From assembly GCA_022825005.1 (NCBI GenBank), contig JAJDYU010000009.1, forward strand, positions 20,227-84,226: a stretch of 64,000 bases of DNA, given 5' to 3'. Source of the DNA: Acidimicrobiia bacterium (lineage in GTDB: Bacteria > Actinomycetota > Acidimicrobiia > Acidimicrobiales > Bin134). Positions within the stretch are counted from its first letter, which is position 1. Every line of letters starts with the position of its first letter. The translations under genes were made by a program, and so were the position numbers. The notes under the pieces are model-generated. The model was not told where the DNA came from. It was given only the letters and a program-made list of their open reading frames with translations, and searched no databases. This document shows, one piece after another, positions 22,871 to 61,828 of this stretch.

Positions 22871-23314
22871 GTGAGGGTGTCGACTCGAGGTGACTACGCC
22901 AGCCGGGCACTGCTGTCGCTGGCCCTGCACGCCGACGAGTCGGGTCCCACCTCGGCGCGGGACATCGCCGAGCGCACCGGACTCCCCCAGCCCTATCTGG
23001 AGCAGATCCTCCAAGCGCTGAAGGGCGCCGGGCTGGTGCGCTCCAAACGGGGGGCGGGGGGTGGCTACGCCCTGGCTCGTCCGCCCTGTGACATCAAGCT
23101 GAGCGAGATAGTGAGTGCGGTGGACGGGCCCATCGTGCTGGGCGACTTCGGCCAGCCCCACAGCGACGGCGCCTGCGATCACGAGGGCCAATGCGTGCTT
23201 TTGGCCATCTGGACCCATGTGGGCGACATCATGCACGACCTGCTGAGCGACTACACCCTGGACGACATCGCCAAAGCCGCACAGGGGCTACTCCCCTGGC
23301 CTGGATCAGATTGA
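22871..23314 (+). CDS. Rrf2 family transcriptional regulator
   Basis: MRVSTRGDYASRALLSLA...ARDIAERTGLPQPYLEQILQALKGAGLVRSKRGAGGGYALAR is a canonical Rrf2 wHTH. Downstream Cys residues (DGACDHEGQC). Confidence 0.85.
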   Translation: MRVSTRGDYASRALLSLALHADESGPTSARDIAERTGLPQPYLEQILQALKGAGLVRSKRGAGGGYALARPPCDIKLSEIVSAVDGPIVLGDFGQPHSDGACDHEGQCVLLAIWTHVGDIMHDLLSDYTLDDIAKAAQGLLPWPGSD

Positions 23315-49163: not shown

Positions 49164-50105
49164 TCAGCGTCTCAAGGCAGGTTCGGGGGGTAGTTGCCAG
49201 GGGGGCCTTAGGTATTGGCGGCCGGTGTCGGGGTGTTTTTCGACGTTCCAGTTTCGGTGGTGCACTTTTTGGTGGCAGTCGTGGCATACCAGTACGAGGT
49301 TGTCGGGTTGGGTGGGGCCTCCGTGTTGCCATTCAACGATGTGGTGCGAAACGCACCATTCGGGTTCTTTGCGGCAGCCTATGCAGCCGCCGTCTCGGGC
49401 TTCGAGGGCGGCTCGCAGGGCGAAGTTGGGGCGGCGGCTGGTTGAGCCCATCCAAATGGGCTCAGTGCTTGCTCTTTTGAACAAGCCGCACAAGATGTCT
49501 GCGTCACAAGCCAGGCGGTGGAACTCGCTTGGCGGAAGCGGGGTGCCATCCGCTAGGCGGGGGCGGCCCAGCTTGTCGTCGATCAGGTCGTAGTCGGCCA
49601 TCAACAACAGCGTGGTGCCCTGGGGCTGCTCGCTGCCGTCTGCGGAAATCGTGCGGGTGATGAGCCGCTCCAACGCATCAGCCCGGCGGTGCCGATCAGC
49701 GGTGTGCTCGCGGCGGTTGTCGGTGCGCCAGTCGTCGTCGGTCGCCTTGTTCAGCGACTTGCGGATCCGCGCCGCCGCAACCGGGTCGAACAAGGCAAAC
49801 AGCTGCCACATCCCGTCGTCTCGTAAATAGAAGCTGGCCGTGCGGTTCTTGCGCTGGCGCTCGAACCGCTTGGCCCCGTCATCGCCGGCCAACTCGTTCT
49901 GGTGGTCGCGCACCGTCTTGCGCAACTGCTCCGGCGTCTGCGTCTCAGCCACCACCTTGGCCAAAAACCCCTCCAACCGATTACGACAAGACCCAATCAA
50001 CCGAAGCCGAGCATCCAACCCGGCATCGTCCAACCTGGCCACATCCACAGCATCAACATGCACGCCGCCCCCGGCATTCCCGCAGGTCACAGCCCCAAAA
50101 TCCAT
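49164..50105 (-). CDS. HNH endonuclease with DUF222 N-terminal region (REP13E12-type)
   Basis: C-terminus CIGCRKEPEWCVSHHIVEWQHGGPTQPDNLVLVCHDCHQKVH (HNH). N-terminal LDDAGLDARLRLIGSCRNRLEGFLAKVVAE is typical of DUF222. Start uncertain and the product is shorter than usual. Confidence 0.75.
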   Translation of the reverse strand: MDFGAVTCGNAGGGVHVDAVDVARLDDAGLDARLRLIGSCRNRLEGFLAKVVAETQTPEQLRKTVRDHQNELAGDDGAKRFERQRKNRTASFYLRDDGMWQLFALFDPVAAARIRKSLNKATDDDWRTDNRREHTADRHRRADALERLITRTISADGSEQPQGTTLLLMADYDLIDDKLGRPRLADGTPLPPSEFHRLACDADILCGLFKRASTEPIWMGSTSRRPNFALRAALEARDGGCIGCRKEPEWCVSHHIVEWQHGGPTQPDNLVLVCHDCHQKVHHRNWNVEKHPDTGRQYLRPPWQLPPEPALRR

Positions 50106-50223
50106 ACAACAATGATATTTACGGCAGTGACACATTCTCAGGGGGCGATACACCATGCAGGTCTTACGTCCACAAGATGCCAACCCCTGAAATGAGTGCT
50201 ACGACTTTTCAGGTGACACGTAA

Positions 50224-50547
50224 TCAGTAGCGAATGTCCAGTGCGTAGCGGAGGGCTTGGTCGAGTCGTGCTCGGACATCAACACTGAGTCGGCCGACAG
50301 GCTCGGAGTCGAGCAAAGCCAGCGAGATGGTGAGGACGTTGTCGCAATTGATCACGCTGGGCGACAACAGTCCTTCCTCTACACCGACTTCGACTTCGGA
50401 GTGAATGCCCCGAATGGTCCGAGTAATTGGAGCACAAGTGACTGAAGTAAGCACTGCGAGCGCGGCGTTGCGGGTGAGGACGCAGACAGGACGCCGTCCG
50501 TGCGGCGGGCCGAGGTCTGCCCAGAAGACGTCGCCGCGGCTTACCAC
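50224..50547 (-). CDS. MazF/PemK-family type II toxin (mRNA interferase)
   Basis: RGDVFWADLGPPHGRRPVCVLTRNAA...VTCAPITRTIRG is a PemK-like fold signature. 7-nt overlap with the upstream antitoxin ORF. Confidence 0.8.
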   Translation of the reverse strand: MVSRGDVFWADLGPPHGRRPVCVLTRNAALAVLTSVTCAPITRTIRGIHSEVEVGVEEGLLSPSVINCDNVLTISLALLDSEPVGRLSVDVRARLDQALRYALDIRY

Positions 50548-50846
50548 TCAGGTGTGTTGACAGCAGCAATCCGGGAGGAGGTGGCCACAAGACCCTGGTC
50601 TTGTGGAATTCGGCGGTAGGCCTCTTGCAACTCCTGATCGGAGGCCTCGCAATCCGTAGCAGCAATGGCAGTGGTGACGATACGACGCACCAGCACCGAG
50701 CGGCTCGTCCCTTGTTCAGCAGCCAGCTTGTCCAGTTGCTCCACAAGGTCATCGTCGAATTGGAACACCACGTCCTGAAGTGCCACGACCTCAGCATACT
50801 CCCCTGCCCGAGAAAACCCTGGTGTGCATTTGACGCCCGTCAGCAT
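50541..50846 (-). CDS. ribbon-helix-helix (CopG-like) antitoxin
   Basis: VVFQFDDDLVEQLDKLAAEQGTSRSVLVRRIV is RHH-like. The true start may be GTG 50786 rather than ATG 50846. Confidence 0.6.
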   Translation of the reverse strand: MLTGVKCTPGFSRAGEYAEVVALQDVVFQFDDDLVEQLDKLAAEQGTSRSVLVRRIVTTAIAATDCEASDQELQEAYRRIPQDQGLVATSSRIAAVNTPEW

Positions 50847-54220: not shown

Positions 54221-54979
54221 GTGAGCCAGCCCGAGGCCCCGCTCTTCGAGGTCGAGAATCTGCACGTCGCCACGGCTGAAGACGGCATCCCGATCTTGTC
54301 GGGCATCGACCTCACTGTTCGAGCCGGTGAGGTACACGCCCTCATGGGGCCTAACGGTTCGGGCAAGTCGACCCTGGCCAGCGCGCTTTTGGCCAGCCCC
54401 GAGTACGAGGTGACCGGGGGGCGGATCCGCTTCAGGGGCGACGACATCACCGACTGGCCCGCTGATGTGCGGGGCAAGGCCGGGCTGTTCTTGGCGTTCC
54501 AATACCCCCAGGAATTCCCCGGCGTGTCGGTGATGAACTTCCTGCGCCAAGCCCTGTCGGCCCGCAAGGGCATCGACTTGTCGGTGCTGGAGCTGCGCCT
54601 GGCGGTAATGGAGTGGATGGAGCGGTTCGACATGGACCCGTCCTTCGCCGACCGCTACCTGAACGACGGGTTCTCCGGGGGCGAGAAGAAGCGCAATGAG
54701 GTTCTCCAGCTGGCCATTTTGGAGCCGGAGATGGCCATCTTGGACGAGACCGACTCCGGCTTGGACATCGATGCTCTCAAGATCGTGGCCAGCGGGGTGC
54801 AGGAGGTGATGACCTCACGTCCGGAGATGGGGGTGCTGGCCATCACCCACTTCCGTCGTTTGCTCGACCATCTGGCCCCCGACCACGTCCACATCCTCAT
54901 GAACGGCAAGATCGCGGCCAGCGGCGGATTCGAGCTGGCCGCACAACTGGACGCCGAAGGGTACGAAGCATGGCGCTAG
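54221..54979 (+). CDS. sufC: Fe-S cluster assembly ATPase SufC (copy 1, canonical)
   Basis: GPNGSGKST Walker A, FSGGEKKRNEVLQ signature, ILDETDSGLD Walker B, C-terminal GYEAW. Confidence 0.9.
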   Translation: MSQPEAPLFEVENLHVATAEDGIPILSGIDLTVRAGEVHALMGPNGSGKSTLASALLASPEYEVTGGRIRFRGDDITDWPADVRGKAGLFLAFQYPQEFPGVSVMNFLRQALSARKGIDLSVLELRLAVMEWMERFDMDPSFADRYLNDGFSGGEKKRNEVLQLAILEPEMAILDETDSGLDIDALKIVASGVQEVMTSRPEMGVLAITHFRRLLDHLAPDHVHILMNGKIAASGGFELAAQLDAEGYEAWR

Positions 54980-56202
54980 ACCCCGGGTCCATTCGGGACG
55001 ATTTCCCGATCATGTGCCGCCAGGTACACGGCCGTCGCCTGGTGTACCTCGACTCGGCCGCTACCTCTCACAAGCCGAGGCCGGTTATCGACGCGGTCAC
55101 CGACTATTACGAGCGCTTCAACTCCAACGTCCACCGGGGCTCGTACCAACTGGCGGTGGAGGCCACCGAGGCGTTGGAGGAGGCTCGGAAGAAGGTCGCC
55201 GATTTCATCGGGGCCTCTCAGGACTCAGAGATCATTTTCGCCAAGAACGCCACCGAGGCGATCAATTTGGTGGCCCGAACCTGGGGTCGGACCAATCTGG
55301 GGCCGGGCGACCCGGTGGTGATCACCGAGTTGGAGCACCACGCCAACATCGTCCCCTGGCACATGCTGGCCGCCGAGCAGGGCATCGAGCTGCGCTGGAT
55401 CCCCATCCGCAGCGACGGCCATCTGGATCTGACCGATCTCGACCGCCTGCTCGACGGCGCCCGGCTGCTGAGCGTGGCCGCGGTGTCCAACGTGCTGGGC
55501 ACCATCAATCCCATCCGGCAGCTGGCCGACGCCGCCCACGAGGCCGGCGCGCTGATGATGGTGGACGCCAGCCAGTACACCCCCCACCTGCCCACCGATG
55601 TGGCGGAGATGGGGGCCGACTTCGTGGCCTTCACCGGCCACAAGATGTGCGGCCCCACTGGAATCGGGGTGCTGTGGGCCAAATCCGAGCTCCTAGAGGC
55701 CATGCCGCCGTTCTTGGGCGGCGGCGAGATGATCCTCAACGTGACCAAAGAGGGGTTCAGCACCGCGGCGGTGCCGTGGAAATTCGAGGCCGGAACTCCG
55801 CCCATAGCTGAGGCAGTGGGGCTGGGAGCGGCGGTGGACTATCTGAGTGGCCTGGGCATGGAGCAGGTTCGAGAACACGAGGTGGCCCTCACCGGCTACG
55901 CCCTGCGGACCCTGAACCAGCGCTACGGCGACGACATCACCATCCACGGGCCGACCGAGCCGGCTGAGCGGGGCGGGGTGCTGTCGTTCGAGTACAAGGG
56001 GATCCACCCCCACGATGTGGCCCAGGTATTGGACCGCTCCGCGGTGTGCGTGCGGGCCGGCCACCACTGCGCCAAGCCGCTGATGCGGGTGCTGGGCTGC
56101 TCCGCCACCAGCCGGGCCTCGATGTACGTGTACAACGACGAGTCAGACGTCGATGCCCTGGCCGATGCCCTGGCCGATGCCGACGCCTTCTTCATCGAGT
56201 GA
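54970..56202 (+). CDS. sufS: cysteine desulfurase SufS
   Basis: YLDSAATSHKP, NVHRG, TGHKMCGPTGIG (PLP Lys) and RAGHHCAKP (catalytic Cys) motifs. Confidence 0.9.
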   Translation: MALDPGSIRDDFPIMCRQVHGRRLVYLDSAATSHKPRPVIDAVTDYYERFNSNVHRGSYQLAVEATEALEEARKKVADFIGASQDSEIIFAKNATEAINLVARTWGRTNLGPGDPVVITELEHHANIVPWHMLAAEQGIELRWIPIRSDGHLDLTDLDRLLDGARLLSVAAVSNVLGTINPIRQLADAAHEAGALMMVDASQYTPHLPTDVAEMGADFVAFTGHKMCGPTGIGVLWAKSELLEAMPPFLGGGEMILNVTKEGFSTAAVPWKFEAGTPPIAEAVGLGAAVDYLSGLGMEQVREHEVALTGYALRTLNQRYGDDITIHGPTEPAERGGVLSFEYKGIHPHDVAQVLDRSAVCVRAGHHCAKPLMRVLGCSATSRASMYVYNDESDVDALADALADADAFFIE

Positions 56203-56266
56203 AGTCTTGAATGATGAAAGACTGCATATCGCTGAGCCCTCGCCCGTAGACTGTTGAACCGTCGCC

Positions 56267-56737
56267 ATGCCTGATCTTGAAGATCTCTACCGCGAGATCA
56301 TCCTCGACCACTACCGCAACCCCCGCAATCGGGGAGAGCTGGATACCCCGCCCGCCGTCCGGGCCGAGGGTTTCAACCCCTTGTGCGGCGACGAGGTGAT
56401 CATTTATGTGCAAGTGGCCGACGGGGTGATCGAAGACATCAAGTTCGGCGGCCAGGGCTGCTCGATCAGCCAAGCCTCCTCGTCAATGATGTCGGCTGCC
56501 GTCAAGGGCCGCACTGTCGAGGAGCTGCAACATTTCAACCAGGCCTTCAGGTCGATGATGTCCATCGAGCCCGACCCCGACGACCCCGCCCCCACCAACG
56601 GCAACAGCCCCGACGTCAAGCTCGGCGACCTGGAAGCCCTCAAAGGCGTGGTCAAGTTCCCGGTCCGCATCAAGTGCGCCACCCTCTCCTGGCACACCCT
56701 CACCCAAGCCGTGGAAGAGGCCCAAGCCGACTCCTGA
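56267..56737 (+). CDS. sufU: SUF scaffold/sulfur-transfer protein SufU (NifU/IscU-like)
   Basis: LYREIILDHYRNPRNRG...NPLCGDE...GQGCSISQASSSMM...IKCATLSW. Confidence 0.85.
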   Translation: MPDLEDLYREIILDHYRNPRNRGELDTPPAVRAEGFNPLCGDEVIIYVQVADGVIEDIKFGGQGCSISQASSSMMSAAVKGRTVEELQHFNQAFRSMMSIEPDPDDPAPTNGNSPDVKLGDLEALKGVVKFPVRIKCATLSWHTLTQAVEEAQADS

Positions 56738-56770: not shown

Positions 56771-57070
56771 CTAATTCAGGGCGTTGACTCGGCGGGCGAA
56801 TTCTAGGTCTAGTTCGGTTAGGCCGCCGGCGGCGTGGTTGGTTATGGCTATCTCTACGGTGGACCAGACGTTGGACCACTCGGGGTGATGGAACAGGCGC
56901 TCGGAGATCAGTGCTACTCGGGACATGAACCCGAAAGCCTCCGAGAAATCTGAGAAGTTGAACGTGGCGGCGAGCTTTTCTCCTTGGCGCTCCCATCCGG
57001 GCAGGTCTTCCAGGGCAGCGGCGATCTCCTCGTCGCTGAGCAGTTTCTTGGCATCGGCGTCTACGGCCAT
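56771..57070 (-). CDS. pterin-4-alpha-carbinolamine dehydratase (PCD/DCoH family)
   Basis: LSDEEIAAALEDLPGWE...FMSRVALISERLFHHPEWSNVWSTVEI is the PCD signature. 10-nt overlap with the end of sufC copy 2. Confidence 0.85.
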   Translation of the reverse strand: MAVDADAKKLLSDEEIAAALEDLPGWERQGEKLAATFNFSDFSEAFGFMSRVALISERLFHHPEWSNVWSTVEIAITNHAAGGLTELDLEFARRVNALN

Positions 57071-57867
57071 GGATCGCCTCCTAAGTGAATTTCAACCGGT
57101 GATTCGGCGCGGGTGTCGATCCAGGGATCGTAGCCAGTCTCCTCCAGTTGGGCGGCCAACTCGGGGCCTCCGGTCTCCGCGATTGCACCGTCGATGAGGA
57201 TGTGGACCACGTCGGCGTGGAGCACAGTCAGCAAACGGCTGAAGTGGGTGATGGCCAGCACGCCGAGGTTGTCTTCATGGGTGGCCTGCTCGATGCGATG
57301 ACTCACCGCGGCAAGTGCATCCACATCGAGGCCGCTGTCCAGCTCGTCCAAGATGGCGATTCGGGGGCGGAGCACGCCGAGTTGCACCGCCTCGCTTCGC
57401 TTCATCTCGCCTCCGGACAGGTCGACGTTCAGCGAGCGGTACAAGAGATCGGGGTCGAAGTCGACCAGCTCGGCCTCAGCGGCCACTTGGGCTTCCACGG
57501 CGCTCCGGTCGCCGCCAATGGCAGCCACTGCCTCCTCAAGCATGTTCTCCAAGCCCACACCCGGAACCTCGGTGGGGTATTGCTGGGTGGAGAACAGCCC
57601 CGCGTGGGCTCGCTCCCACGGGGACAGTTCCACGAGATCAACATCATTCAGAGTGATCGACCCCGCGGTTACCTCGTAGCCGGGGCGGCCCATGATGGCG
57701 TAGGCCAGGGTTGACTTCCCCGAGCCGTTGGGGCCCATCACCGCGTGGACTTCGCCCGATGCCACCCGCAGGTCCACCCCATTCAGCACCATTTGCCCGC
57801 CGACTTGGACGTGCAAATCTGAGACCACCAGCTCGCTCTGGGCAGCCTTACTCATGTCGCTGCCCAT
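57061..57867 (-). CDS. sufC: SufC paralogue (copy 2, divergent)
   Basis: GPNGSGKST, LSGGEMKRSEAVQ, ILDELDSGLD and GYDPW. About half the residues are identical to copy 1 by eye. Start ATG 57867 or 57855. Confidence 0.85.
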   Translation of the reverse strand: MGSDMSKAAQSELVVSDLHVQVGGQMVLNGVDLRVASGEVHAVMGPNGSGKSTLAYAIMGRPGYEVTAGSITLNDVDLVELSPWERAHAGLFSTQQYPTEVPGVGLENMLEEAVAAIGGDRSAVEAQVAAEAELVDFDPDLLYRSLNVDLSGGEMKRSEAVQLGVLRPRIAILDELDSGLDVDALAAVSHRIEQATHEDNLGVLAITHFSRLLTVLHADVVHILIDGAIAETGGPELAAQLEETGYDPWIDTRAESPVEIHLGGDPWP

Positions 57868-57885: not shown

Positions 57886-58227
57886 TTACCCATCTTGGCC
57901 GACCTCCAGCCAGACCTGGCCCTCATCCACACCCACGTCATAGACCGGCACCGGGCGAGTAGCGGGCAGAGTCTCAGCCTCCCCGGTAGACAAGTTGAAC
58001 AGGCTGCCGTGCTTCCAACACTCGATGGTGCCCTCCTCGGCATCCACTTCGCCCTCGGCCAGGGAGTAGTCAGCATGGCTGCACGTGTCGCCCAGGGCAT
58101 AGAGATCATCTCCCACGCGGATGACTGCGATCCGGTGAACCAACCCGCCAACTTCAACGTCGAACCGTCGGGCCTCGCCGTCTCCCATCTCATCGAGCGG
58201 GCACAAAGTGATCCGCTCCGAGCTCAT
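57886..58227 (-). CDS. Rieske [2Fe-2S] ferredoxin-like protein
   Basis: CSHADYSL...CWKHGSLF Rieske ligand boxes. Position between sufD and sufC, as I recall for Streptomyces suf operons. Confidence 0.85.
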   Translation of the reverse strand: MSSERITLCPLDEMGDGEARRFDVEVGGLVHRIAVIRVGDDLYALGDTCSHADYSLAEGEVDAEEGTIECWKHGSLFNLSTGEAETLPATRPVPVYDVGVDEGQVWLEVGQDG

Positions 58228-59486
58228 GAGCCGCTACCCCCATCGACACCGTGATGGCTCAAACCCGCGATCTTTGAATCAAGCCGCTCCCGCACCGCGG
58301 GCATCGCCCCGGGCACGGGGAACTGGTCCAAAACCTCATTGAAGAACCCGGTCACGATGAGACGTTCGGCGGTGTCGGTGGGCACCCCCCGGCTTTCCAG
58401 GTAGAACAGCTGGTCGCCGTCGATGGGCCCCACCGCAGAAGCGTGGCTGCAATGGACCTCGTTGTTCTCGATCTCCAGGTTGGGCACCGACTCGGCCCAG
58501 GCGTCTTCTGACAGCTTGATGTTGCGGTTGGTCTGGTAGGCGTTGGTGCCCCGGGCGTCGGGCCGCACCCTGATCAAGCCGGTGTACACCGACCGGGAGG
58601 CATCGTCCACCGCACCCTTGAACAACAAGGTGCTGGTGGTGTCGGGAGCGGCGTGGTCTTGGAAGGTTCGGAAGTCCAGGGTCTGCTCGCCGTCGCCGAA
58701 GTACAGCGAGATCAGATCACCCGTGGCCCCCCGACCCGACAAGTGGGTGTCCAGACGAGTCCGGGCGTATTCGCCGCCCAAAGCTGCAGACGACGCCCGC
58801 AGGTGGGCCTGCGCGCCGATGTGGCTGACCTGCGAGCCGATGTGCCATACCTTGGGCCCAAGGTCCTGCACGGCCAGATACCCCACCCGGGCGGCAGCGG
58901 CCACCCTGATCTCGATCACCGGGCTGACGAACGCAGAAACGTCGGCTGAGCCGTACAGCTCCAGTACCTCGACCGAGGAATCGGCCCCCGCGTCCACGAT
59001 CAACCGGGGGAAAGCCGCTCCCCCATCGGCGTCGAGCCAATGGCGCACCACGATGGGCCCTTCCACATTCACTCCCGAGGGCACCCGCACCAGCAGCGGC
59101 TCCACGGAGAATGCCGCATTCATGAGGGCGAACAGGTCCACATCAACCGAGGCGGCCAGCTCGGCGTCGTCGTCGCCCAATGGCCGGACCTCCACTCCTT
59201 GGTCGGCCACCTCGGCGGGAAGCTCAACGCCGCAGAGCCGCCCGTTGCTGGTGTCGGCCATCACGCTGTGTTCAGGAACGGCAACTGGCGAAACACCACC
59301 ACCGTCGGCCAGCTGATAGCGGCTCAGGTCCAACTGCCCGATTGGGGTGTACCGCCAAACCTCCTCTTCCACCGAGGGCATCGCCGCGGCAGCCACCTGT
59401 TCGGCGGCAGCCACTCGTCGGCGGGCCAGCCAATCGGGGCCGGGTATGGCACCGGCCGCATCGGGGGTGAATTGGGTTTCGATCAC
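58224..59486 (-). CDS. sufD: Fe-S cluster assembly protein SufD
   Basis: C-terminal block SRSVYTGLIRV...QTNRNIKLSEDA...NLEIENNEVHCSHASAVGPID..QLFYLESRG. Confidence 0.85.
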   Translation of the reverse strand: MIETQFTPDAAGAIPGPDWLARRRVAAAEQVAAAAMPSVEEEVWRYTPIGQLDLSRYQLADGGGVSPVAVPEHSVMADTSNGRLCGVELPAEVADQGVEVRPLGDDDAELAASVDVDLFALMNAAFSVEPLLVRVPSGVNVEGPIVVRHWLDADGGAAFPRLIVDAGADSSVEVLELYGSADVSAFVSPVIEIRVAAAARVGYLAVQDLGPKVWHIGSQVSHIGAQAHLRASSAALGGEYARTRLDTHLSGRGATGDLISLYFGDGEQTLDFRTFQDHAAPDTTSTLLFKGAVDDASRSVYTGLIRVRPDARGTNAYQTNRNIKLSEDAWAESVPNLEIENNEVHCSHASAVGPIDGDQLFYLESRGVPTDTAERLIVTGFFNEVLDQFPVPGAMPAVRERLDSKIAGLSHHGVDGGSGS

Positions 59487-59854
59487 GAACGCCGACGGCG
59501 CTTTCGCCGCTTCGCCTTTCCGCCGCCGCCCGCTCGCAGCCGCCGCCGTGACTTCTCCCTCTCCAGCTCGGCCAGCACCCGGGGGCCGGCCTCGTTCACG
59601 ATGTCTTCGGCCGCGTCCAAAAGTGCGCCGACGCTCTCGTCGCTGCCCACGCTGGCTGGCGCATCAGGAGTGGGCGGCGTGACCAGCGTGCCGTGCGACC
59701 AGTTCACATCCACCATCCGCCGTTCATAGGCCGAGCAGTCGTCGGGACAGCGCCACGGGGCCTCGGGGGCCAAGTCTAAATCGCACTTCCGGACGGTCTC
59801 CCCATTGGGGTACGACCGGCTCTCGAAGAACTTGCAATCCTGCCGCATGGGCAT
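59483..59854 (-). CDS. unknown 123-aa protein: N-terminal 4-Cys region, C-terminal polybasic tail
   Basis: ATG 59854 shares one nt with the sufB stop (TGATG). Its own stop overlaps the sufD GTG (GTGA). Cys pattern C-x16-C-x11-C-x3-C. The tail is RRRLRAGGGGKAKRRKRRRRS. Confidence 0.55.
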   Translation of the reverse strand: MPMRQDCKFFESRSYPNGETVRKCDLDLAPEAPWRCPDDCSAYERRMVDVNWSHGTLVTPPTPDAPASVGSDESVGALLDAAEDIVNEAGPRVLAELEREKSRRRLRAGGGGKAKRRKRRRRS

Positions 59855-61263
59855 CAGCCGACAGATCCCTCCATCTGCAACTCGATCAGCCGGCTCCACT
59901 CCACGGCGTACTCCATCGGCAGAGTGCGGGTAATGGGCTCGATGAAGCCGTTGACGATCATGCCCATGGCCTGCTCCTGGGTCAGCCCCCGGCTCATCAG
60001 ATAAAACAGCTGCTCATCGGCCACCTTGGAAACGGTGGCCTCATGTCCGATCTCGGCATCCCGGGTGCCCACCTCCATGTAGGGGTAGGTGTCGGAAACG
60101 CTGTCCTCATCCAGGATCAGGGCGTCGCACTGCACGTGGCTGCGGCACCCGTAGGCGTCGTCCTCCACCCTGACCAAACCCCGGTAGCTGGTGCGGCCGC
60201 CGCCGTTGGAGATCGACTTGGACACGATCTTGGAGGTGGTCTCCGGGGCGGCGTGGGTCATCTTGGCCCCGGCGTCCTGGTGCTGGTCGGGCCCGGCATA
60301 GGCCACCGACAGCACCTCGCCCGAGGCCTTGGGACCGACCATCACCACTGCGGGGTACTTCATGGTGAGCCGGGAGCCGATGTTGCCGTCGATCCACTCC
60401 ATGTGGCCCTCGGCCTCGACCTTGGCCCGCTTGGTGACCAGGTTGTACACGTTGTTGGACCAGTTTTGGATGGTGGTGTAGGTGACCCGGGCCGACTTCT
60501 TGACCAGGATCTCCACCACCGCGGAATGAAGCGAATCGCTGGTGTACACCGGGGCCGAGCACCCTTCGATGTAGTGAACCTGTGAACCCTCGTCGGCGAT
60601 GATGAGGGTCCGCTCGAACTGGCCCATGTTCTCGGCGTTGATGCGGAAGTAGGCCTGAAGCGGCATCTCCACCTCCACGCCGGGGGGCACATAGATGAAG
60701 CTTCCCCCCGACCAGACGGCGGAGTTCAGAGCGGAGAACTTGTTGTCGCCCGGCGAGATGATGGTGCCGAAGTGCTCCTTGACCAGCTCGGGATACTCCT
60801 TGAGCGCAGTGTCCATGTCGCAGAACAGCACGCCCTGGCGCTCCAGATCCTCCCGATTGCGGTGGTAAACCACCTCGGACTCGTACTGGGCGGTGACCCC
60901 AGCCAGGTACTTGCGCTCAGCCTCGGGGATGCCCAGCTTCTCGTAGGTGTCCTTGATCGAGTCGGGCACGGCCTCCCAGTCGTCGGCCAGGCCCTCGGTG
61001 GGCTTGATGTAGTAGTAGATGTTGTCGAAGTCGATGCCCGACATGTCGCCGCCCCAGTTGGGCATGGGCCGCTTCTCGAACCGGGACAGCGACTTCAGGC
61101 GGAAGTTCCGCATCCAGTCGGGCTCGCTCTTCATCCACGACATCTCCTGAACGATGTCGGTGTTGAGCCCTTTTTTGGGCTTGAAGACGTAATCTTCCTC
61201 GTCGCTCCATCCGAGCTTGTATCGGCCGAGATCTAGAGCAAGGGCTTCCGACGACATATCCAA
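59854..61263 (-). CDS. sufB: Fe-S cluster assembly protein SufB
   Basis: 469 aa, with the conserved SufB core ([17 protein letters not shown]...CDALILD). TTG start 61263. No intein-sized insertion. Confidence 0.95.
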
Positions 61264-61309
61264 ATCCTAGTTACAGGGGAGGTGTGGTTGACTTGAATAC
61301 TACCGGCGG

Positions 61310-61828
61310 TCAACCCAATAGGCGCATCTCAGCCCGATATCGGTAACCCCGAGATACGTAGCCCTGGGCGTCCTCTCGATTCTGCCCCTCGGCCATGTGC
61401 CCTTCGCGGATCTTGGCCGGCACGCCGATGGCCAAGGCCAGCGGGGGGATCTTCATGTGGTTGGTGACCACTGCGCTGGCTCCCACCAATGCTCCTCGGC
61501 CCACGACCGCCTCATGCAGCACTACGGATGCCACGCCGATGAGCGCCTCATCCTCTATCGTGCAGCCCTCCAAATGGGCCAAATGCCCGACGGTGACGTC
61601 ATTGCCCACCACCGTGGCCAGCTCATCGGTGTTGTGGATGACGGCATTGTCCTGGATGGAGGTGCGGTCGCCAATGATGATGCCCGCGCCATCGCCTCGA
61701 AGCACCGTTCCAGGCCAAATGGTCGACTCTGCGCCGACGCTCACTCGGCCGATAATCACCGCTAGCGGATGGACAAAGGCCTCAGGGTGGATGTCGGGCT
61801 CGATGTCACCCAGCGCGTAAATGGGCAT
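61310..61828 (-). CDS. gamma-carbonic-anhydrase-like hexapeptide-repeat protein (YrdA/PaaY/CaiE family)
   Basis: MPIYALGDIEPDIHPEAFVHPLAVIIGRVSVG...IWPGTVLRGD is typical of the left-handed beta-helix gamma-CA family. Confidence 0.85.
   Translation of the reverse strand: MPIYALGDIEPDIHPEAFVHPLAVIIGRVSVGAESTIWPGTVLRGDGAGIIIGDRTSIQDNAVIHNTDELATVVGNDVTVGHLAHLEGCTIEDEALIGVASVVLHEAVVGRGALVGASAVVTNHMKIPPLALAIGVPAKIREGHMAEGQNREDAQGYVSRGYRYRAEMRLLG

Follow-up and report, generated by a model that had tools for sequence, protein, structure and literature searches.

Most bacteria assemble their iron-sulfur (Fe-S) clusters mainly with the SUF machinery, whose core parts are generally regarded as known. 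A stretch of 64,000 nucleotides (nt) from an Acidimicrobiia bacterium (GenBank assembly GCA_022825005.1, contig JAJDYU010000009.1, positions 20,227 to 84,226; hereafter the window) carries, between the genes of the two scaffold subunits SufB and SufD, a gene of 123 codons that encodes a small protein with four cysteines and a strongly basic C-terminal tail, referred to here as the Cys4 protein. The gene is joined to its neighbors at both ends, its ATG sharing one base with the stop codon of sufB (TGATG) and its own stop codon overlapping the GTG of sufD (GTGA). Direct reading of the sequence confirmed both junctions and the spacing of the cysteines (C-x16-C-x11-C-x3-C, at residues 7, 24, 36, and 40), which had been described in a first-pass annotation made from the letters of the window. 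The same annotation had placed a GGAGGG motif 13 nt upstream of the gene; the motif is present (59867-59872, within the sufB codons for ...MEGSVG), but at a distance of 12 nt from the ATG. The product, translated from 59483-59854 of the minus strand, is 123 amino acids (aa) long and has the C-terminal end GGGGKAKRRKRRRRS / LLDAAEDIVNEAGPRVLAELEREKSRRRLRAGGGGKAKRRKRRRRS. The N-terminus of SufD aligns with its orthologs from residue 2 onward (locus L007).

High-GC DNA is rich in long spurious open reading frames (ORFs) and two plus-strand ORFs overlap this region, as would be expected if the 123 codons were a chance ORF or a mere reflection of a frame of the opposite strand. This explanation was refuted by the conservation data, and its probability is practically nil. 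Orthologs with 88-98% identity were found in 11 genomes of the same genus. Using 10 of these orthologs together with the window sequence, all of them 372 nt long (the eleventh ortholog is longer and was left out), a pooled Nei-Gojobori ratio of nonsynonymous to synonymous substitution (dN/dS) of 0.074 was obtained, and the differences fell mainly on third codon positions (1594, versus 433 on first and 177 on second positions). The strongest constraint was detected in residues 1-50 (dN/dS 0.035), followed by residues 51-98 (0.05) and the tail (0.29). Beyond the genus, a word-indexed search of 5.8 billion proteins returned 4609 relatives at E<=0.01, all of them unnamed or annotated as hypothetical protein, including WP_419851348.1 from Candidatus Poriferisocius and metagenome-assembled genomes labelled Acidimicrobiales, Ilumatobacteraceae, or Microthrixaceae. 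With thousands of homologs, invariant cysteines, and a frame kept across the class, the ORF of the Cys4 protein is a real gene under strong purifying selection. An exhaustive phmmer search of 1.84 billion cluster representatives yielded only 256 clusters at E<=0.001, indicating that the family is compact.

Both overlapping junctions (TGATG or TAATG at the start, GTGA at the end) are present in all 11 congeners. Given these two overlaps, with the sufB stop on one side and the sufD start on the other, the Cys4 protein is predicted to be translated together with SufB and SufD, and this translational coupling is genus-wide.

The window contains two convergent suf operons (Table 1). The label sufS in the plus-strand operon rests on our reading of the ORF translation as that of a class-V aminotransferase (cysteine desulfurase-like). 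Each operon has its own sufC, which opens the plus-strand operon (54221-54979) and closes the minus-strand one, and the two paralogs share 50% identity. Genes for a hexapeptide-repeat protein and a flavin reductase lie 5' of sufB. Farther away on the minus strand, the ORF list alone suggests a candidate PemK/MazF-like toxin, overlapped at its upstream side by a small ORF, beside an ORF with an HNH motif (50224-50846 and 49164-50183).

Table 1. Features of the suf region of the window, parts of the Cys4 gene, and SufR-like genes at loci of relatives (coordinates preceded by an L label are those of that locus).
Feature	Position	Strand	Basis or remark
sufB	59854-61263	minus	469 aa; TIGR01980, E 1e-214
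Junction TGATG, sufB stop and Cys4-gene ATG	59852-59856	minus	shared A; sufB TGA 59854-59856, ATG 59852-59854
Cys4-protein gene, 123 codons	59483-59854	minus	translation; between sufB and sufD
Residues 1-50, Cys4 domain (C7, C24, C36, C40; motif LAPEAPWRCPxxC)	59705-59854	minus	alignments, dN/dS
Residues 51-98, Pro-rich linker and acidic helix (LLDAAEDIVNEAGPRVLAEL)	59561-59704	minus	LLDxAEDIVN block, dN/dS
Residues 99-123 and stop, polybasic tail	59483-59560	minus	net charge +14 over last 25 residues; dN/dS
Junction GTGA, Cys4-gene stop and sufD start	59483-59486	minus	TGA 59483-59485, sufD GTG 59484-59486
sufD	58224-59486	minus	420 aa; TIGR01981, E 5e-73, exceeds curated cut-off
Rieske-type [2Fe-2S] ferredoxin gene	57886-58227	minus	PF00355, E 6e-16
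sufC copy 2, final gene of minus-strand operon	57061-57867	minus	ABC_tran domain
Second suf operon, sufC (copy 1)-sufS-sufU, convergent	54221-56737	plus	ORFs; NifU_N and ABC_tran domains
Divergent SufR-like (COG2345) gene	L072 1378-2100	plus	
Divergent SufR-like (COG2345) gene	L148 762-1535	minus	
Divergent SufR-like (COG2345) gene	L135 1533-2255	plus	
Divergent SufR-like (COG2345) gene	L084 1417-2166	minus	

Anatomy of the Cys4 family

The family can be defined by the signature M-R-x-[DE]-C ... C-x-L-D-L-A-P-E-A-P-W-R-C-P-x-x-C, followed by an LLDxAEDIVN helix and a basic tail, in a protein of about 105-130 aa, and the window protein shows every one of these features. In an alignment of 36 varied members that share 36-67% identity with the query, the residues C7, C24, A29, P30, P33, C36, P37, and C40 are invariant and the central LLDxAEDIVN helix is conserved. 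When short paralogs were added (37 sequences), the invariant set comprised C7, G18, C24, P33, C36, P37, and C40. Indeed, the four cysteines, P33, and P37 remain unchanged across identities of 32-84%, short paralogs included. These paralogs, of about 60 aa, consist of a tail-less Cys4 domain and occur in some genomes of the window's order (L013 3490-3672, minus; L014 3329-3523, minus; L015 3515-3703, plus; L016 3341-3520, plus); the copy at L013 is divergent from a gene for a 442-aa pyridine-nucleotide disulfide oxidoreductase.

The distribution of charge is also characteristic. Over 53 orthologs, the median net charge is 0 for the first 50 residues, -8 for the middle part, and +6 for the last 25 residues, where the minimum is +1; the tail of the window protein is among the most basic of them. 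The tail is conserved in charge and free in sequence, being often rich in Arg, Phe, and Trp (RRLFRR, WWRRWRR) or formed by poly-Lys. The basic tail that the first-pass annotation considered suited to nucleic-acid binding is therefore a family trait, but conservation of charge only fits electrostatic docking equally well.

The AlphaFold2 model of the full protein, built with an alignment, consists in essence of a hairpin and one long helix (mean predicted local distance difference test, pLDDT, 80). The beta-hairpin (residues 10-24) is flanked by C7 and C24, a loop bears C36 and C40, and the long helix starts at residue 73 (pLDDT 85-98).

It is very likely that the four cysteines bind a metal center of some kind. 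As for its nature, the absence of a CxxC knuckle, so that the protein is unlike a classic zinc ribbon, the presence of a Cys-Pro pair as found in many Fe-S sites, and the operon context tip the balance somewhat toward an Fe-S cluster over zinc.

Distribution and gene neighborhood across the class

The family hidden Markov model matched 154 of the 301 genomes of the class Acidimicrobiia, with E values from 1e-37 to 1e-52. Across 401 genomes of the phylum, members were found in this class only; two weak matches elsewhere contain in-frame stops and look like chance. The lineage confinement raised as a question by the first-pass annotation was thus borne out by the phyletic profile, and the family is restricted to this class. 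Within the window's order, 74 of 76 genomes were positive. Two of the apparent absences, in genomes G251 and G473, are assembly gaps, the G251 assembly having no sufD and the sufD of G473 being cut by a contig end. In G225 and G368 the sole match is a weak one of the short-paralog type; in G368 the full-length protein is truly absent, only a short paralog being present, and sufB abuts sufD. Of the 225 genomes from other orders, about 80 were positive, and whole families (f9, f11-f13, and f93) were negative.

The linkage of the gene to suf is a feature of the window's order. At 31 of its 32 Cys4 loci a suf gene lies within 1.5 kb, and a suf gene was found within 2.5 kb at 78 of the 80 best loci from a species-representative collection, among them the locus of the cultured Actinospongicola halichondriae Hal317 (L187). 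The commonest order is sufB-X-sufD-Rieske-sufC, where X is the Cys4 gene. This linkage outlasts both inversion of the gene in place (L026, L036) and its relocation beside sufU-sufS (L038, L042). In one family, a gene for an EamA-type membrane transporter stands between sufB and the Cys4 gene (L007 1800-2771, minus; L004, L008, L009), and it is the stop codon of this transporter gene that overlaps the ATG of the Cys4 gene.

The picture is different in the other orders, where sufB directly abuts sufD and none of 22 orthologous loci (E values of about 1e-33 to 1e-46) has a suf gene within 3.3-4 kb. The usual context of the gene there, all on the same strand, is MBL-fold hydrolase-rph (RNase PH)-rdgB-esterase-185-aa gene-Cys4 gene, sometimes with a PAS-GGDEF gene inserted. 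The 185-aa protein (MAVIDVPGFVA...; L055 3379-3936, plus, with counterparts in 17 other-order loci), encoded directly upstream of the Cys4 gene, has no match in Pfam or NCBIfam and is absent from the window's genome. The suggestion of the first-pass annotation that nothing normally separates sufB from sufD agrees with these data, adjacency being the norm elsewhere in the class; the idea that the Cys4 gene would always lie between them does not. Because sufB and sufD are adjacent elsewhere in the class, the insertion of the Cys4 gene between them is a lineage trait, specific to one order. As a separate observation, the alignment of sufB breaks after about residue 128 at four loci (L129, L132, L133, L185) and resumes some 0.5-1.2 kb farther on, which suggests an intein or another insertion in the SufB of some Acidimicrobiia.

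These neighborhoods bear on a first alternative, according to which the Cys4 protein is a housekeeping small metalloprotein, with a structural zinc bound by the four cysteines and RNA, DNA, or ribosomes bound by the acidic and basic C-terminal parts, its position in the suf operon being a fixed accident. The location of all 22 other-order loci outside suf, mostly just downstream of the rph-rdgB-esterase-185-aa gene array and on the same strand, agrees with this explanation, as do the adjacency of sufB and sufD in those orders, where the suf operator described below does not accompany the Cys4 gene, the conservation of the tail in charge only, and the short tail-less paralogs in unrelated contexts, such as that beside the pyridine-nucleotide disulfide oxidoreductase. 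However, a suf linkage kept order-wide despite inversions and relocations, and codons overlapping with both sufB and sufD in 11 of 11 congeners, speak against an accident; moreover, the CxxC knuckle typical of structural zinc sites is missing, and the rph-rdgB neighborhood is positional evidence only. We regard this alternative as unlikely, though it deserves to be kept in mind.

Control of suf expression

An AT-rich, partly palindromic motif, TTGTTACTAT-N4-RTAGKRGAAAT, was found class-wide 50-100 nt 5' of sufB (L107-L116, L119-L134, L138, L140-L142, and L146, with the site near 1501-1525 from L119 on). There is about one copy in each genome, whereas a reversed-pattern control gave about zero. 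This operator-like motif is present in genomes without a full-length Cys4 protein, either before sufB (G368, G419) or before the sufC-sufS operon (G047), and also in orders whose Cys4 gene lies elsewhere. A second copy was detected in the divergent promoter shared by mrp/apbC and a gene for a SufR-like protein of 230-250 aa (G062, G368, G521), an arrangement seen at L072, L148, and L135; at L084, no operator copy was found with the SufR-like gene. The SufR-like proteins carry ARHH and AGRP motifs and C-terminal cysteines, and match TIGR02702 with an E value of 1e-8. SufR/COG2345 proteins have been described as having about 230 aa, a winged helix-turn-helix (HTH) with an RRH motif, a GRP AT-hook, and three C-terminal cysteines (bioRxiv 10.64898/2025.12.26.696629), which fits the SufR-like identity. 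The gene probably encodes the suf repressor of the class. Since operator and SufR-like gene are present with or without the Cys4 protein, this operator and the probable repressor that goes with it are independent of the latter.

The window's genus departs from this scheme. The operator-like motif was not found in the window's genome even at <=5 mismatches, and the absence of an adjacent SufR gene reported by the first-pass annotation extends to the whole genome, in which no SufR-like gene was found. On contig C90 (6165-8218), the slot of the SufR-like gene is empty, with 74 nt between a cysteine-desulfurase-like gene and mrp. Both the suf operator and the SufR-like gene have thus been lost in the window's genus. 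The Mrp of C90 has no N-terminal DUF59 domain; there is a second Mrp-like gene on contig C61, whose alignment starts at residue 8 and which may still have this domain. A test of whether the Cys4 protein replaces SufR, by anticorrelation with SufR-like genes, gave no clean pattern: full-length SufR-like matches are sporadic, both genes are present in G302, G521, and G609, and the lone SufR-like-positive genome scored without the Cys4 protein, G251, is the assembly gap mentioned above.

Two further elements of the window may bear on control. The gene at 22880-23275 (plus) encodes an Rrf2/IscR-like regulator (TIGR00738, E 2e-33; IscR model, E 1e-25, under the cut-off of that model), a possible Fe-S or cysteine regulator in this SufR-less genome. 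In addition, the sequence CCGGTAGTAT at 61300-61320 (minus), about 45 nt 5' of the point where sufB starts, has been kept across the genus and is probably the -10 region of a sufB promoter. An inverted repeat, GTTGAC-N16-GTCAAC, flanks it 5' of sufB; congeners do not retain this repeat as a palindrome, which makes an operator improbable. A scan of 56.7-63.5 kb for promoter and terminator consensus sequences found nothing.

The second alternative, toward which the first-pass annotation leaned in part, is that the Cys4 protein is a functional counterpart of the WhiB-like (Wbl) proteins, a regulator that would sense Fe-S or redox status through a cluster held by the four cysteines and tune SUF expression by binding DNA or suf mRNA through its tail, above all in the window's genus, where SufR has been lost. 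The combination of a four-cysteine domain with a basic C-terminus fits such a role, and it is in the genus devoid of suf operator and SufR-like gene that one of the most basic tails (+14) is found. Genome G091 has a second operator-like site, with 3 mismatches, between the Cys4 gene and sufD (L136 1501-1525), which may mark an internal regulated promoter. Nevertheless, relatives with or without the Cys4 protein already possess a SufR-like repressor and a palindromic operator, no HTH or other recognized DNA-binding fold was matched in Pfam, and the Cys4 gene lies outside the suf regulon in other orders. A mid-operon position coupled to both scaffold subunits suggests a stoichiometric output, not the low level of a regulator; the protein is unrelated to Wbl; and the window also encodes the Rrf2/IscR-like regulator. 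The regulator reading is therefore weakened to the point of being improbable, and a secondary, tail-mediated role in the window's genus is conceivable. Of the twofold proposal of the first-pass annotation, the accessory part is the plausible one, given the order-wide suf linkage, and the regulator part is disfavored by the separate operator and SufR-like gene.

A proposed accessory of the SUF scaffold and its comparison with known systems

The reading that we favor, with a probability of roughly 45%, is that the Cys4 protein assists the SUF scaffold as an accessory that binds a metal or an Fe-S cluster and is produced along with SufB and SufD; that it has a SUF-related role of one kind or another is close to an even bet. 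According to this proposal, the Cys4 gene entered the suf operon in the window's order and came to lie between sufB and sufD, and in the window's genus ribosomes would make the protein together with both scaffold subunits. It would help the SufBC2D scaffold as a small partner, and not act as a transcriptional regulator of the operon; it might be the first to accept the nascent cluster or the factor that releases it, relay electrons, or sense whether the scaffold is occupied, while the charged helix and the tail might serve as a docking element. The interaction with SufB and SufD, physical or functional, and the role of the tail are parts of the proposal that we infer from these data. In a bolder version, which we consider unlikely as it stands, the protein would be a lineage-specific Fe-S-binding subunit or obligate partner of SufBC2D ("SufX") that receives the nascent cluster or gates its release and that, in a genus without SufR, might also feed the status of the scaffold back to suf mRNA or DNA through its basic tail.

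Several observations weigh against an accessory role. The stop/start overlap is specific to the genus, the gap between sufB and the Cys4 gene being about 20-110 nt in other genera. In other orders the ortholog is never near suf, so that its core function need not be SUF-specific, and no operator-like motif was found near the Cys4 gene there at <=3 mismatches. The genome already has an A-type carrier (contig C61), Mrp/ApbC, SufU, and a Rieske ferredoxin, leaving no obvious SUF role vacant; the idea that the Cys4 protein fills a vacant carrier role was rejected on account of the A-type carrier and Mrp. The Cys4 domain modelled alone reached a pLDDT of 50, which provides no support for a cofactor; a mini-domain that depends on a cofactor and has a shallow alignment might be expected to give such a value, yet this is not evidence for one. 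Finally, no relative of known function was found for the protein, by fold or sequence.

If a SUF role is true, an order-wide, strongly selected Cys4 protein encoded between the scaffold genes would add a new component or client to SUF in a class that is abundant in oceans, sponges, soils, and wastewater. The class offers a natural contrast, with one order keeping the gene inside the operon and sister orders having the same protein encoded elsewhere and adjacent sufB and sufD, which makes the question directly testable. In addition, the comparisons offer an initial view of how suf is regulated in a class that has been little studied, with a class-wide operator and a divergent SufR-like gene, both lost in the sponge-symbiont genus of the window.

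Concerning known families, the first-pass annotation called the protein unclassifiable, and the searches agreed with that description. Neither Pfam nor NCBIfam yielded a family for the window protein or for 36 members; in Pfam, nothing matched at E<=1 for the former or at E<=10 for the latter. Sequence-profile searches of the PDB with full-length and N-domain alignments returned only chance matches (E 0.014-0.67), in which PWRCPxxC was aligned with linkers of C2H2 zinc fingers, and Foldseek with the full-length model returned nothing from the PDB at E<=0.001. Literature searches brought up no description of an Acidimicrobiia gene lying between sufB and sufD. The sequences of the family are already in databases as hypothetical proteins, with no family, structure, or paper found that describes them.

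The nearest analogy to the Cys4 protein is found in the Wbl [4Fe-4S] proteins, which bind region 4 of sigma-A. They are also small (80-130 aa), restricted to an actinobacterial lineage, and endowed with four invariant N-terminal cysteines and a basic C-terminus, a plausible design for an Fe-S sensor. However, their cysteines are spaced C-xn-C-x2-C-x5-C, and the Wbl proteins of this genome show C-x2-C-x5-C and an invariant WGG, whereas the Cys4 protein has the spacing given above, no G[IV]WGG turn, and an acidic helix. Membership of the Wbl family was rejected, since PF02467 finds six Wbl genes in the genome and not the Cys4 ORF, and hhalign of the 36-member alignment against a Wbl alignment gave a probability of 0.75%. 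With SufR (COG2345), whose role the first-pass annotation suspected to be vacant, the Cys4 protein shares its richness in cysteine and its linkage to suf, but it has neither an HTH family match nor a GRP or RRH motif.

Other four-cysteine sites are also distinct. Small bacterial C4 metal-binding proteins with a helix or disordered tail, such as the zinc fingers DksA/TraR and Ruc, a zinc-ribbon chaperone of mycobacteria, combine a Cys4 module with a long helix or charged tail and provide leads only. Their cysteines form paired CxxC knuckles, of which the Cys4 protein has none, and no Pfam zinc-finger family matched it. Likewise, its sequence nowhere contains a CxxC, two of which mark the classic zinc-ribbon or rubredoxin-like C4 site, and matched no zinc-ribbon family, and the CxxCxxCxxxCP motif of bacterial 4Fe-4S ferredoxins is absent, with only C-x3-C and Cys-Pro present and no Fer4 match. 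The profile of the A-type carriers SufA/IscA/ErpA (PF01521, C-x(n)-C-G-C) did not match either.

A functional parallel is offered by the operon-encoded SUF accessories SufA (PF01521), SufU/SufE, SufT/DUF59, and the Rieske ferredoxin of actinobacterial suf operons. SufA, SufU/SufE, and the Rieske ferredoxin were found as separate genes in the genome, the DUF59 protein being the exception. The Cys4 protein is homologous to none of these accessories (Pfam, NCBIfam), but it shares with them its small size and, in the window's order, its place in a suf operon. We propose that it belongs to the functional class that they form, that of proteins binding sulfur, electrons, or clusters or handing them on.

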